DNA of 64,000 nucleotides from Cetorhinus maximus. Its lineage: Eukaryota. The stretch lies in assembly GCF_964194155.1 (NCBI RefSeq), contig NC_135887.1:37138001-37202000 (forward strand), given 5' to 3'. Of the stretch, positions 29,185-36,278 are shown one piece after another. The notes beneath the pieces are model-generated. The model was not told where the DNA came from. It was given only the letters and a program-made list of their open reading frames with translations, and ran no database searches. How positions within the stretch are numbered: the stretch's first letter is position 1; every line of letters starts with the position of its first letter. The position numbers and the translations under genes are program-made.

Positions 29185-29853
29185 TGTTAGGAAATCTTTT
29201 AAACAATGAGTAGAGTCTGTAAAAATTATGAGTAAATAAGTTGGTACTGTACAATTCATAAGTTTGTAGACTCGAGATGATCAGATTGAGGGCCAAATAC
29301 AAAAAATGAACCAAAGTTTAAAAACTAAGGTTCAGGCTCAAGCATGTTGCCCAAATGCAAGTTTATTACTCAAATGCCAATAGTGTAATAACTATTACAG
29401 TTATAATAGATTCATACAGCCTGGTTTCTTGCCGACCCAAGGTGATCAAACCTGGCCTCTTTAGATATTGGACTTACGACTATCCTGTGAGCCCTGACCT
29501 TAGAAGGGCCATTCCCTGATATTTTGTGTACCCTTTCTTCATGAGTTATATCACATGATACCCAGTGTGTATATAGAAGCGCATTCCTTCTCACCCAACC
29601 TCCAGAGTTGACAATTGGATATCTTGATGGTTTAACTGTTAAGCAGTTAATATTACGAAAGGAACAGGATGACCTAGAATCGACAATCTCAAATAAATGA
29701 TACCTCTTGGGTCCTTCCATTGTTCTGGCCAATACCCGAAACTCATACCTGCTTTAGTTTCTATTTCCATTGTTCTGGCCAATAACAGATGTTGACACAA
29801 ATGCAAATCACATCAAGATTTGATCAACCTTTAGACTCAGGCAAATTCTAACT
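29185..29853 (-). repeat. 3' LTR of provirus
   Basis: Starts tgttaggaaatctttt, ends ggcaaattctaac; aligns with 35690-36278; AATAAA on minus near 29362. Confidence 0.85.
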
Positions 29854-29864: not shown

Positions 29865-29989
29865 TGAGCCTTAGTCTTTAAACTTTGATTCATTTTTTAT
29901 GTTTGGCCCTCAATTTGATCACCTCGAATCCACAAACTTATGAATTGCACAGCACCAACTTATTTACTCATAATTTTTACAGACTCTAC

Positions 29990-31800
29990 TCATTGCATAT
30001 GAGCTTTGAATATTTTGAGGACCATCCAAAAGGCTCCCATCTGCCAGATCTGCAGCTGATCCTCCAACCACTAACACACAGTGCGTATATCTAGCGAAGT
30101 AATAATAACAGTGATTGTCAACACAAATTGAACAACTGAGAAAATATGAGAAAGCATCTGAGCCCAGACAGATTGCCCCACATGATATACCTTTTCCCAC
30201 CATTATGGTCTTCTGGGTTTTGATTCCCCTCTCGATATCTTTATTATCCTGCTGCATATGAGCCAAGCTTTTTTGTGAGGTAGTTGTATGCTGAAGGATC
30301 AACTTCAAACTTAGCAAAAGAATGGAAAATCAGGTGGCCAACATGAAACCACCCAACTTAGGGCTTCCTCCTGAAGGGGCAGCTCCACCTGTATTTCTGT
30401 AATGTTGTGGAGCTGAACTGGTAATAACAGTTTTCTCTAACTTTGATCCATTCAGCTAGGGAGAGACAGAACATAGGGCTATTGAGCAGACAGAGGATGG
30501 TGTAGGTGTGAACCACTGGCAGTACCTTTCCCTGTCCATGTAGGTAGTTTTCACCTGACCAGGACTCCCTCAACTTATGGAGACAGTGCAATTTGGAGAA
30601 TGATCATCCAATGTGTACCCACACGTGGGTGTAGGATGCTGGTACACATCACTCCTACATACCCATTCCTTTCCAACTTGTCTGCAACACTTCCAAGTCT
30701 GGGGCTAACCACGTGTTCTTTTTGATAATCAACTATCGAGGATTGTCCCGAAATTCCTTAAAAATAGTATCATTTGGAATGTTCAATGACTCTTATGGAT
30801 TCTACTTTATACAACGACACAGGAGGGGCTGTAGAGTTCATGATGATCGGGACTGCCACTATTACTGGGACCAGACTGTTAATACCCTGAGAGTGAGCCT
30901 GAGAGTTAAAAAAGGCAGCTCCTTGCGACCTGATGCATTCATATTCTTCTTCCATTTTATTGGTTCCCAACTAAGTGACCAAGTTGTGATTCTTGAGAAA
31001 GGCAAGAATCTGATTAGATTCAAGGTCAGGCAATCCCTTTTGCAGTAAGGTCAGCACAAATCTTCCATACAAACTACAGGTGACTGCTTAGAGACATTCT
31101 GCTGTGCATACTCGTTTGTCTCCTCCAATAATCTCATTGACCTTATCAGCGATGGACTGCATGGCCGCTACTATCTCTCTAGGTGGATAACAACATTTTA
31201 CTTGTTCGTGAATTAGTTCCCCACTTTGGTCATTTAATTTGGTCAAACGCCCCTTGAGTTACCTCCCCATGACTTCATCATGTTCCCGCATCTTTATGAT
31301 TCAGGCCGGCCGAGCCAGCGGTGGTTCCTACCCCCACCCAGTCAGCTAAACCTCGTTTGCGTCAGGCCTTCAGCCCTTTACCCATGTAAGGGCTCTTCCA
31401 ATCTCTCCTTTGGTTTCTCACCTGTGCCTCCCCTACCATTTCATTTAACATGAGATGAAACAAATTAAGGTAGCTATTGTGGATCAGGCATATGCAGAGA
31501 GGTTAAATTAAAAACAGCAGGACCAATTTCAGAGTGCATGTTGTTGTATAACAAATCATCTGATTCCATCACTTCTAACCTATTTGTTTGTGGGATATGG
31601 GAATAACATGGACTTCCGGCAACATTTTTATCTGGTTTCCCAATGGCCTCTTACCTCACATGACAGCTGGCATAGGTACAGTTGTCACTTGGTTCACTCA
31701 GATGTTACCACTGTGTCTATTCCAGGACTGGGCCAGTTTAATGTTTGAATTAGTACTAAGCCATTCTTTCTATCAGGTTATCAGGACATTTTCCCCTTAT
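29990..31800 (-). pseudogene. env: Envelope glycoprotein pseudogene, class I fusion (F-like) architecture
   Basis: Hand translation: [*]RKR/GLADWVGVGTTAGSAGLN (31364-31300), heptad EIVAAMQSIADKVNEII, VIVAVPII..LYKVESI, CRQVGKEWVC..CGY..NCTV..RYC, TM WWEKV...IFSVVQFVLTITVIIT; stops and frameshifts. Confidence 0.75.
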
Positions 31801-31909
31801 AGGGCACCCCGACACCCTGACAGGAAATGCAAACATGCCAAATTGGTCTTAAAACCTCTGCCACCGGATCCCCACTGCTGTTCCATTACTGATACAAATG
31901 AATTTTACA

Positions 31910-34450
31910 TGAATCCCAGTCTGTCCAGTCTTTCCTCATAAGACAACCCACACATTCCTGGTATTAGTCTAGTAAACCTTCTCTGAACTGTTTTTAACGC
32001 ATTTACATCTTTCTACAAATAAAAAGACCAATACTGTACACAATACATTGAATGTGGTCTCACCAATGCCCTGTACAACTGAAGTATAACCTCCCTACTT
32101 TTGTAATCAATTCCCCTCACAATAAATTATAACATTCTATTAGCTTTCCTAATTACCTGCTGTACCTGCATACCAACCTTTTGTGATTCACGCACTCGGA
32201 CACCTAGGTCCCTCTGATTCTCAGAGCTCTGCAATCTCTCATCATTTAGATAATAAGCTTCTTTTTTATTCTTCCTGCTAAAATGAACGATTTCATATTT
32301 GCCCACATTATACTCCATTTGCTAGATCTTTGTCCACTCACTTAACCTATCTATGTCACTTTGTAGCCTCCTTACGTCCTCTTCACAATTTACTTTCCTA
32401 CCTGTGTTTGTGTCGTCAGCAAATTTAGCTACCGTTCCTTCAGTCCCTTCATCCAAATCATTTATATAAATTGTAAAATGTTGAGGCCCCAACACTGATC
32501 CCTGTGGCACACCATTCATCATATCCTGGCAACCAGAAAAAGACCCATTTATGCCTACTCTCTTCTTTCCTGTTAGCTAGCCAATCTTCTGTCCATGCCA
32601 ATATGTTAACCCCTACACCATGAGCTTTCATTTTCTGCAATCACCTTTGATGTGGCACTTTATCAAATGCATTCTGGAAATCTGTGTACAGTACATCCAC
32701 CAGTTCCCCTTTATTCACTGCACATGTGACTCCTTCAAAGAACTCCAATAATTTGGTTAAACATGATTTCCCTTTTACAACATCATGTTGACTCTGTCTG
32801 ATTGCCTTGAATTTTTCTAAGTGCCCTGCTATAACATCTTTAATAATAGCTTCTAACATTTTCCCTATGACAGGTAGGAAAACTGGTCTGTAGTTTCCCG
32901 CTTTCTGTCTCCCTCCCTTTTTGAATAAAGGAGTTATATTTGCTATTTTCCAATCTAATGGAAACTTCCCTGAATCTAGGGAATTTTGGAAAATTAAAAC
33001 CAGTGCATCAACTATCTCACTAGCCACTTCTTTCAAGACCTTACGGTGAAGTCCATCTGGACCTGGGGATTTGTCAGCCCGCAGCCCCAACAATTTGCTC
33101 AATACCACTTCCCACATGTTTATCATTTCCCATATTAATACTTTTCTCTCTTGCCTTGCCTCCAGTGCAGAGCGTCCCAATGGTACAGCCCCCACTTTCC
33201 CCAATGCTGGTGCCAGTGCCCCACAAACTGGAACCCACTTCTCCCACACCAGTCTTTGAGCCATCCGTTCATTTCTCTAATCTTATTTGCTCTATGCCAA
33301 TTTGCACATAGCTCAGGTAATAATCCAGAGATTATTACCTTTGAGTCCTGCTTCTTAATTTGGTGTCTAGCTCCTCATACTGACTGTGCAGAGCCTCCTT
33401 CCTCATCCTGCCTATGTCGTTGGTACCTGCATGGACCACGACCACTGGATACTCCCCCTCCCACTGCAGGTTCCTCTCCAGCCCTGAGCAGATGCCCAAA
33501 CCCTGGCACCGGGCAGGCAACAAAGCCATATGGACTCTTGCTCTTTGTTACAGAGAACAGTGTCAATCCCCCCTTACTATATTGTCCCCTCCTATCACTA
33601 CATTCCTTTTTGCGCCCCCCCCTTGGATGGCTTCCTGTACCACAGTGCCATGGTCACTTTGATCATCTACCCTGCAACCCCTGCTCTCATCCTAACAAGC
33701 TGAGACAACCTCAAACCTAGTGGACAATTGCAGAGGCTCACACTCCTGCACTCCTGCCCTCTGGGTCCAATTACCTGCCTTACTTGCAGTCACACCCTCC
33801 TGTCCCTGACCACTGACCCTATCCTAAGTGGTGAGACTGCCTCCTGGTATAAATCCAGGTAACTTTCCCCTCCCTGCTGTGTCGCAGAGTCTGCAGCTCA
33901 GCCTCCAGTTCAATGACTCTGAGCCGAAGTTCCCCAAGCCGCAATCACTTACTGCAGACGTGTTTGGCCTGGATCACAATGTTATGCAGGAGCAGCCATA
34001 TGCTGCAGCCTTGACACATCACCTGTCCTGCCATCTTTAATGTGTTTTAAATAATTACCTAATTATATTAATCATTTATTTATGTTGCTTTCTTATATAT
34101 TTTAGTAATTTTACCAATGTGTATACCATTTTAAACTTTAGGGATAGAATAGAACTTACCAGATACTCACCAAACAGCTAGTTCCTTTCCCTGTCGTAGA
34201 GTATGAACCAATTTCTATGGGGTGAGAAATATAAAAAGAGGAAATGAACAATTCCTTCTATCCCTTCACCGAATTCCCCTCTCATCAAACTCCAAGTTTT
34301 CACTCAGTTAGTCAGCCAGACTCCATTTGCCAAGGCTGCACCAAAGAACCCTGAATTTATAGTAAGTTGAACTGGGGCTACAGTAACCAGATTCAACCAG
34401 TTAGCTAATTAAGTACTCAGCTCCTATAGCTGAGAGTGAGTTTACCCTGT
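31910..34450 (-). mobile_element. CR1 LINE (5'UTR, ORF1 esterase, RT part; endonuclease missing) inserted in the provirus
   Basis: VVVHAGTNDIGR; KSPGPDGLH, GNYRPV, DFQNAFDKVPH, GVPQGSVLGP, FADD. Confidence 0.9.
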
Positions 34451-34859
34451 CTAAACCCCATGACTGGTAGCTTTCCGTGCTGCCTCATTCACCCCTCTCC
34501 AAATCCCAGTGCCCTTCTTAATGACGATGAAGGTAGGAAGAGACTTATACACCTCTGGATGGCACACATGCAGTACCAGTTTCACCCTCTGTCCTTCATC
34601 GCAATTTTGTAAGTCAGCCACTTGTATTGTTATCATACTAGGACAAGGGTCCACCCTAGATTTAAGCTGTGGAATATTCTGAGCTATCTCTTACTGCACA
34701 GCAGTAAGGTTCCCACACCCCCACTTTACATCTCTCTTTGTAACTTAAAGGGGCATCATCACCCCTTTTCCTTTTATGCTATTGTTATCACAGCTCACAT
34801 TCAGGTCACCCCGTTCTTTCCTTCTATAATCATATTCCCATGCAGATCATACGAGATCG

Positions 34860-35531
34860 TTGTACTCTATTTGTCCCATGGAACATTCCTGTTCCCCAAC
34901 CCATCACCCCAATATAGTGAACATCACACCCCAATGTTGCTTCAGCTTATCCTTCAACTCCCAGATCTGTTTTTGACATGCAACATGATTGTCTTCCTTT
35001 CCACCAATTTTCTGGTCCTCCACTCACTGCCTAAGAACATCCCTTAAGACAGCACTAAATTCATCAGTTTTCTGTTGATTTTGTTCTACCACCCCTTTCC
35101 TTTCTTCCAGATTTACCTCACACTGCATTGAATTTTCTGGTCTTATGACCAATCTCAATCTGTAAGTAAGAAAGTGATTTGGACAGAGACTCATAATGCT
35201 TCTTTTTGTCCTCTAACTGCTTCTCAACCTCACACAACCTACTCTGGTTCATCTCTGCCACTCTCTTTTGCCCTTCTAATTCTTCTTTTAATTTGGTTAT
35301 TTTGTGTGCTTGCCACAGAATAATCATGGCTTTCCAATCATGCCATTTAATTTTCTTTTCCTTCAGTAACCTTTGGTGTAATTCTGACAGTTGTCTCAGA
35401 CTGTCTACCTCAGATACTAATGATTTGGATGCTTCTGGCTTCTTGTCCACATATTTCTGAATTGCACTGACTAACTTATCTGCCATGACATCTACCTCCT
35501 GTACTGAACTTGTGACCGAGAGACCATCCAC
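34860..35531 (-). pseudogene. Coiled-coil N-terminal gag-like remnant
   Basis: 137-aa ORF 35118-35531 with E/K/L heptads just downstream of the PBS; continues after lesions with NHVACQKQIWELKDKL. Confidence 0.55.
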
Positions 35532-35668
35532 TAATTTATTTCACTTAGTCATAAACCATCTCTCCGTTTGAGTCCACTAATTTATTTTTCTTAATCACAA
35601 ACCCTATTCCTCCCATCAGAGTCATGCCTAGCAATACAACTTGCATTTGTTTCAACACTTTAACTCAA

Positions 35669-35686
35669 GTCCATCCAGGGATGCCA
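35669..35686 (-). other. Primer-binding site, tRNA-Asn(GUU)
   Basis: Plus gtccatccagggatgcca vs recalled vertebrate tRNA-Asn 3' end gcccacccagggacgcca: 15/18, all C>T; 3 nt from the LTR. Confidence 0.75.
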
Positions 35687-35689
35687 GAA

Positions 35690-36278
35690 TGTTAGGAAGT
35701 CTTTTAGCACAATTAAATGATTCCTTGTAATTCGGGTTCAAATGTGTTGTCTAAATGCAAGTTTATTACTCAGACGCCAATAGTATAATAACTGTTATGG
35801 TTATACAATAGATGCATAAAACTGGGTTTCTTGCAGACCCAAGGTGATCAAATTTGGCCTCCATAGATATTGGATTTATAACTGTCTATGAATTCTGACC
35901 TCAGGAATTCTGTTCCTGATATATTGTGTACCCTTTCTTTGTGAGTTATATCATATTGATACCCAAAGTGTATACTGAAGTGAGTTCTTTCTTGCCCAAC
36001 CTCCAGACTTGACATAATGGCCATCTTAATGGTTTAACTTTAAGCAGTTAATATTACAAAAGGAACAGGATAATCTAGACCATCTCAGGTAGTTTGGTGA
36101 TACTATTTGAGTCCTTCCATTGTTCTGGCCAATACCCAATACTTGCATCTGACGTGGGATGTAGTCAAAATATCTGCTATAGTTTCTACTTCCATTGTTC
36201 TGGCCAATAATACAAATTCAAATTCTGATAATTATATCAAGATGTAATTTCTTATAGGACTCAGGCAAATTCTTAACA
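35690..36278 (-). repeat. 5' LTR of provirus
   Basis: tgttaggaagtctttt...ggcaaattcttaaca (TG..CA); homologous to 29185-29853. Confidence 0.85.

Follow-up and report, generated by a model that had tools for sequence, protein, structure and literature searches.

Envelope (Env) proteins resembling the fusion protein F of paramyxoviruses and pneumoviruses have been described, in the parts of the papers available to us, for lokiretroviruses (PMC7947760), foamy viruses (PMC11468914) and errantiviruses (PMC13524379), so that an F-like env cannot by itself name the virus from which it came. The lokiretroviral Env of Wang and Han (available part of PMC7947760) comes from aquatic vertebrates and, like the shark env described here, combines an F-like character with an RXKR site, a fusion peptide, a coiled coil, a transmembrane (TM) segment and a position within an LTR element. 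The anamniote Env survey (10.1101/2021.11.23.469661), as far as its accessible text goes, covers gamma- and beta-type Envs only. Endogenous retroviruses (ERVs) like the snakehead retrovirus (SnRV) have been reported in a cartilaginous fish, according to the portions consulted of PMC6001957 and PMC4977317.

Captured vertebrate env genes in the literature consulted were found via gamma-type motifs. Syncytins, percomORF and Seb-env are, like the gene reported below, intact env genes that outlasted their provirus, are transcribed and occur across host species, and percomORF is cited as the posited oldest intact ERV-derived gene (accessible part of PMC12813294). A 2026 preprint (10.64898/2026.05.06.723177; main text, in part) used syncytin queries on 36 chondrichthyans, retained only Envs with an ISD and a CX6-7C motif, and found synteny only within Squalus. 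This screen could not have retained the gene described here because it required both motifs: in contrast to the shark syncytin-like Envs, our gene is of F type, has neither ISD nor CX6-7C, and is found in three orders rather than one genus.

No conserved shark F-type env gene was found in the literature searched, the scope of which did not extend to Wang and Han 2020 (10.1093/molbev/msaa180) and the supplements of the 2026 preprint, and no such gene is mentioned in the consulted portions of PMC13709493, PMC10699275, PMC12067270, PMC12583693, PMC11521997, PMC6001957, PMC4977317 and PMC12386078. What is new here is an intact sister gene, likely a domesticated F-type env of galeomorph sharks. The copy from which we started is a heavily decayed, ordinary fossil env of a known structural kind, and by itself it matters only as the fossil that reveals the proviral origin of the intact gene. 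It lies in the window, a stretch of 64,000 nucleotides of Cetorhinus maximus DNA, with the following features.

30017..31917, minus strand: broken env, pseudogene of an F-type class I fusogen, equivalent to codons 92-749 of the intact paralogue
31353..31361, minus strand: basic furin-type motif RKR, immediately preceded by a stop codon; intact relatives have RKRR or RRRR here
31299..31352, minus strand: Gly/Ala-rich putative fusion peptide, its role suggested by position
31115..31258, minus strand: HR1-type heptad region, long helices in the paralogue's model
30480..30865, minus strand: beta-rich core (VIVAVP, LYKVES) and Cys-rich block, equivalent to the F-type beta domains of the paralogue's model
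30187..30272, minus strand: HR2-type helix and Trp-rich membrane-proximal segment, mapped on the paralogue and its model
30094..30145, minus strand: transmembrane segment, with hydropathy reaching 2.51 at the peak (aa 705 of the paralogue)
29331..29849, minus strand: 3' LTR-like direct repeat, from self-comparison; also found after env in two other copies (L028, L029)
35731..36273, minus strand: 5' LTR-like direct repeat, from self-comparison, partner of the 3' repeat
34455..35700, minus strand: broken gag-like region, common to other family copies; the gag label comes from position only
31914..34456, minus strand: RT-bearing LINE insertion that removes the 5' end of env
29865..29995, recurring inverted at 29204..29334, no strand: inverted duplication of 131 bp (92%) that brackets the 3' LTR-like repeat

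As judged from its sequence, the window element is an old LTR retroelement with the order LTR-like repeat, gag-like region, env, LTR-like repeat, without a detectable pol and with a LINE inserted. The two LTR-like repeats, which enclose about 7 kb, are 75% identical over 556 columns (K2P distance 0.205), and no pol remnant was detected between 28 and 38 kb of the window. The gag-like region contains an N-terminal coiled-coil ORF (35118-35540), yielded weak coiled-coil matches only in Pfam, and was uninformative in the ESM Atlas when this ORF was submitted (recognition 1780). The LINE, which we take to be of the CR1/L2 type, cuts the env at about 31917. The sequence doubled by the inverted duplication is single in L028 and L029.

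The initial annotation had hand-translated a series of fusogen motifs from the minus strand, and this series is real: all of the motifs are present between 29990 and 31917, in the order given and scattered over three frames. Reading along the minus strand, LLYNNMHSEIGPAVFNLT is followed by a stop codon and the RKR of the furin-type site that had been proposed (31364-31353), and then by GLADWVGVGTTAGSAGLN from 31352. Further downstream are LKGRLTKLNDQ from 31258, EIVAAMQSIADKVNEII, CSLYG at 31078, VIVAVPII at 30865, LYKVESI at 30814, the Cys-rich block from 30689, WW at 30202 and the hydrophobic TM segment at 30145-30094. Compared with the intact paralogue (P0001), the window env has accumulated 23 indels, 21 of them frameshifting, and 12 in-frame stops, which gives 33 frame-breaking lesions in total. 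In a tblastn search, P0001 nevertheless matched the window with 289 bits (E 1.6e-85), compared to at most 25 bits in each of 50 shuffles, and the resemblance is thus not due to chance. At the DNA level the two are 76% identical over 2177 columns. Codons 1-91 of the paralogue have no counterpart in the window, and Pfam returned no family for env when the window frames were read with X at the stops.

When the genome was searched at the DNA level with the window env, 19 matches of 66-82% identity were obtained, distributed over about 10 loci, and an env-spanning open frame was present at a single one of the 10 close loci (C7:31581168-31583429). Two other close copies that were scored carry 16 and 19 frameshifting indels, with seven stops each. 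A protein search returned at least 62 matches, most of them belonging to younger families at 25-29% identity, and the analysis included 20 further genome stretches. In several of the young elements, protease, RT, tether, RNase H and integrase domains were recognized. Neither the surroundings of the C7 gene nor six other loci (L024, L026, L028-L031) yielded any trace of pol, and L025 has only a short integrase C-terminal piece ahead of env. In L025 and L026 (C274 and C14:40.7 Mb), the gag-like region lies just about 0.7-1 kb from env, so that elements without pol, or with pol deleted, may have multiplied non-autonomously. The young families (L032-L036, L041, L042) encode F-type envs 24-29% identical to the intact gene, many of these matches having 0-2 stops, and show a weak Ig match ahead of the env core as well as SnRV-like RT motifs.

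An intact paralogue such as the initial annotation had proposed to look for, probably domesticated, thus exists in this genome, and putative RNA contigs from other organisms match it (see below). P0001 comprises 754 codons from its ATG, with RKRR at residues 287-290, so that 290 aa precede the cleavage site and 464 follow it. The short pre-cleavage part that had been noted in the window is not a property of the protein, but results from truncation by the LINE. The order of furin site, fusion peptide, HR1, beta/Cys-rich domains, HR2 and TM is complete in the paralogue, and the window copy maps onto it; a signal peptide was not evident from hydropathy. Counterparts were found in Scyliorhinus torazame (XP_072333160.1; 91.0% identity, 754 aa), Heterodontus francisci (XP_067889054.1; 88.3%, 754 aa) and Chiloscyllium punctatum (GCC29952.1; 86.1%, 739 aa), which represent three shark orders. 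The database annotation of all three reads uncharacterised or hypothetical. A quick env tree grouped the four shark proteins in one short-branched clade with a support of 100; its nearest relatives were frog and unnamed proteins, separate from the young shark families. The ORF has thus stayed intact in distant hosts while sister copies decayed, as expected of a domesticated env gene.

Across the four sharks, invariant columns amounted to 347/410 in the post-cleavage ectodomain, 136/185 in the N-terminal 200 aa and 28/54 in the TM segment and tail. Invariance is thus highest in the post-cleavage ectodomain, which is consistent with selection acting on the fusion machinery without proving it, as folding constraints alone would also be expected to conserve the fusion subunit more strongly.

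Searches of Pfam and of PDB sequences and profiles with the intact envs found no fusogen. PF00523 gave no match at E up to 1, 0.1 or 0.05 with intact envs and relatives, and among 26 relatives scanned by Pfam one fragment alone gave Baculo_F (E 0.0011). In line with an F-type protein, however, ESM Atlas placed aa 200-740 at 0.95 to clusters in which Fusion_gly and Baculo_F account for 21% and 11% of the members, and at 0.94 to an F0 cluster (82% of members). For structure prediction, a profile-free search of cluster representatives provided 42 relatives, 39 of which (P0030, P0038 and P0045 were left out) were aligned with the query, one Xenopus protein, one Logan member, two shark proteins and seven young envs, giving 51 rows. 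The AlphaFold model of aa 200-735 obtained with this alignment was of moderate quality (mean pLDDT 69, pTM 0.50), with the cleavage/fusion-peptide segment under 50; three sequences only gave a pLDDT of 28.

When this model was compared with the PDB by Foldseek, the top matches were RSV F and hPIV3 F (best E 1.9e-9, probability 1.00), and the best 38 rows were all paramyxo- or pneumovirus F, with low TM-scores of 0.2-0.33 (up to 0.34 overall). The top match in BFVD was F0 (E 3e-11), and matches there include insect-virus glycoproteins, baculovirus F, walleye retrovirus Env and foamy Env. VIA gave Z 8.2 to hPIV3 and NDV F and 7.7 to foamy Env, which are middling values by the tool's scale. Since embedding and predicted structure are two independent kinds of evidence, assignment of the env to the class I fusion glycoproteins of the paramyxo/pneumovirus-F structural type (subclass Ib) is supported, with the fold itself a prediction. 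Of the two relatives that had been proposed from the motifs, F of paramyxo- and pneumoviruses was thereby borne out by Foldseek, BFVD, VIA and ESM, whereas errantivirus Env was not, the env relatives being accompanied by a pol of vertebrate retroviral type that has a dual RNase H and RT motifs like those of SnRV. The view that the protein is not gamma-type also held, and a gamma-type Env or syncytin was rejected: CX6CC, CxxC and an ISD-like motif are absent from all four intact shark proteins, and the post-cleavage part is 464 aa long.

With paramyxovirus and pneumovirus F (PF00523; 6apb, 1ztm, 1g5g), the intact paralogue thus shares the predicted fold at aa 200-735, including F2-like strands and a helix, the furin site, the fusion peptide, long heptads, beta/Cys-rich domains and the TM segment. 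It differs from them in being a retroelement-encoded shark env of only 9-14% identity without a Pfam match, and in carrying some 200 additional residues at the N-terminus, which may be Ig-like, going by the UniRef name of P0003 and by weak Ig_3/V-set matches in relatives. The same F-like core is seen in foamy virus Env (8rm0; available part of PMC11468914), which VIA superimposed with an rmsd of 5.1 over 207 aligned residues, and in the BFVD models of foamy and walleye epsilonretrovirus Env (Foldseek E 1.6e-8 to 1.6e-6). Unlike these, the shark protein has 754 aa instead of about 980-1300 and does not match the foamy Env families of Pfam. The two walleye epsilonretrovirus models, WEHV1 and WDSV, matched the F-type model with E 1.6e-8 and 1.2e-7 (BFVD ranks 14 and 22).

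As to the viral lineage, the close family's own RT was not found, and relatives with 25-43% identity in env had to serve for the assignment instead. Among solved structures, the RT of the young family with the related env matched foamy virus best, then MLV, over Ty3; a second RNase H is present, and the database relatives are coelacanth and frog 'NYNRIN-like' pols. L037 and L039, whose envs share about 33-44% identity with P0001, have pol remnants for which this Xenopus/coelacanth group was again the best match. Gypsy-like pol fragments near the close copies L027 and L043 had an unrelated row as best match. By eye, the young family's RT motifs, PQG/QYVDD, match the SnRV row in the consulted part of the PMC7947760 supplement, in which the lokiretroviral rows read PFG/xIYVDD. 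We consider it fairly probable that the lineage is snakehead-retrovirus-related (clade Huo; available parts of PMC6001957 and PMC4977317), a likeness that concerns the RT motifs.

A lokiretrovirus, which would extend that group to cartilaginous fishes, was our first reading and was dropped after the RT motif comparison. It would account for the F-like Env with RXKR, and the accessible part of PMC7947760 also describes dual RNase H and, in some of these viruses, a coiled-coil smc gene; the related young family likewise has dual RNase H and lies near the base of a quick RT tree. That tree, however, had an unresolved base (support 32), no named references and labels guessed from Pfam domains, and in it the young family did not, as a weak result, group with the single foamy-labelled row. 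Together with the SnRV-like motifs, the missing PF00523 similarity and the survey in the same paper, which in its consulted part reports lokiretroviruses in none of three orectolobiform genomes and none from cartilaginous fishes, this makes a lokiretrovirus improbable. Direct integration of an F gene from a paramyxo- or pneumovirus, as a non-retroviral endogenous element, is hardly credible. The best structural matches are indeed to these F proteins, and paramyxovirus elements are known in teleost genomes (available part of PMC11521997), but identity to them is very low, foamy and walleye retroviruses have Envs of the same fold, and the sequence relatives are pol-linked shark envs and uncharacterised frog proteins. 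The env, moreover, occupies the env position of LTR-type elements, in the window between direct repeats and together with a gag-like region.

Transcription of the C7 gene was analyzed in 5 of 11 listed sequencing runs, whose kind is putative (taken as RNA or DNA). The run organisms A-D possibly overlap with the named shark species and were not added to them, and the host species is absent among the RNA runs. Contigs from the putative RNA runs of A, C and D, which stem from three studies, span the ORF completely or almost so, at about 90% identity and with no indel rows listed inside it; run X2 contributed two short pieces of the ORF only. The contigs of A, C and D leave the genomic sequence at positions 3430-3433 of L021, where a pyrimidine-rich AG acceptor lies 2 nt ahead of the ATG. 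In contrast, X10, a fourth run that was taken as DNA, has a contig that continues across this junction with 20 differences in 501 and no gap. The loose end common to A and C has a single match in the 4 Gb genome, at C7:31587674, ending at a GT donor, which defines a GT-AG intron of 4.24 kb between an upstream exon and the env exon. An in-frame stop can be read just before the junction, and the ATG of the env exon is therefore the start. The acceptor region is also present in the decayed viral copy L026, and the upstream exon shows no similarity to any viral copy. The spliced junction in contigs of two other organisms, from runs putatively of RNA, indicates that the gene is transcribed in those organisms. 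A putative orthology across the sharks is supported by the common upstream exon and the read-through contig. In organism D (run X5), the env exon is joined to a different upstream sequence, possibly an alternative first exon, which was not found within 120 kb around the gene at up to nine mismatches.

Differences between the ORF and the run contigs were synonymous in 37 of 73 cases, compared to an expectation of 27.6% (p 2.5e-5), and none of the 73 creates a stop. Under neutrality, 9-11 stops would be expected among 210-270 substitutions. This test, which is not a dN/dS estimate, uses the best-supported rows pooled over runs (33 + 40, with 644 + 66 further rows outside it), and the synonymous excess on this biased subset is only suggestive of purifying selection.

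Taken together, we assign a probability of roughly 80% to the reading that the window holds the dead env of an old LTR retroelement and that its spliced C7 sister is likely host-domesticated, with a predicted F-type fold, most likely as a membrane-anchored, furin-cleaved cell-fusion protein. For its role taken separately, we put cell fusion at about even odds; exclusion of related viruses and any other role are each rather unlikely. Somewhat less likely still, in our estimate, as a rival reading of the gene, is an antiviral envelope that blocks receptors or acts as a dominant negative instead of fusing cells. Env-derived restriction genes such as Fv4 and suppressyn are an established outcome of capture, the genome has many younger elements with a related env, and there is no placental need in two of the named carriers, as catshark and bamboo shark lay eggs. 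A receptor common to the gene and to younger envs that are only 25-29% identical is doubtful, however, and the gene has kept furin site, fusion-peptide region, heptads and TM segment, with the post-cleavage ectodomain as its most invariant part. Recent independent insertions of a still-circulating virus into the four sharks are very improbable. Retroviruses often jump between hosts (available part of PMC6001957), and this genome harbors a younger related family with near-intact envs. Nevertheless, the C7 gene is surrounded by no pol, no gag match and no LTR pair, with a short 3' LTR-like remnant only, all other close copies are old and broken, and one locus was returned per named species. Further, the upstream exon is genome-unique, unlike the viral copies, and used in two other organisms.

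A domesticated C7 gene suggests the following course of events. A retrovirus with an F-type env, probably snakehead-retrovirus-related, would have entered the germ line of ancestral galeomorph sharks. The close copies examined decayed, the window copy now being without pol and with a LINE in its env 5' end, and one copy kept its 754-codon frame; in two other organisms, an upstream exon that does not look viral is spliced to it. Fossils place the Carcharhiniformes at about 170 Ma, and estimates for the crown group are 192-202 Ma (consulted part of PMC9763247); from these order ages and the counterparts in three orders, the gene would be at least about 170 My old, and selection would have kept it for that time. 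The product may be a type I membrane protein that forms trimers and, once cut at RKRR, inserts its Gly/Ala-rich peptide into the target membrane and fuses membranes by HR1/HR2 refolding. The full proposal, that galeomorph sharks captured an F-type retroviral env more than 170 My ago and still use it as a cell-fusion protein, is tentative and falls short of even odds.

If true, an F-type env kept intact and spliced across three orders for at least about 170 My would be among the oldest captured envelopes; percomORF is just over 100 My old. Drosophila Iris may be an F-type precedent in another host, and a gecko foamy co-option reportedly may be one too. The finding suggests that captured envs of an entire class have so far gone unnoticed and, with the catshark as a model species, offers a testable gene for what captured fusogens do outside placentas.

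Additional observations concern env-like sequences in other proteins. The C-terminal part of P0045 (XP_067888431.1, Heterodontus fbxo15 isoform X3) is env-like, with the weak Baculo_F match mentioned above, and represents a possible exonisation. P0038, a 1084-aa cadherin-domain protein with an env-like stretch at aa 17-150, may be a chimeric model or an exonisation as well. Full-length or long env relatives (P0005, P0010, P0037 and P0046) were found among uncharacterised proteins of the frogs Pelodytes, Mantella, Bombina and Xenopus, and the Pelodytes protein, a single-member cluster, is the closest non-shark relative (31%).
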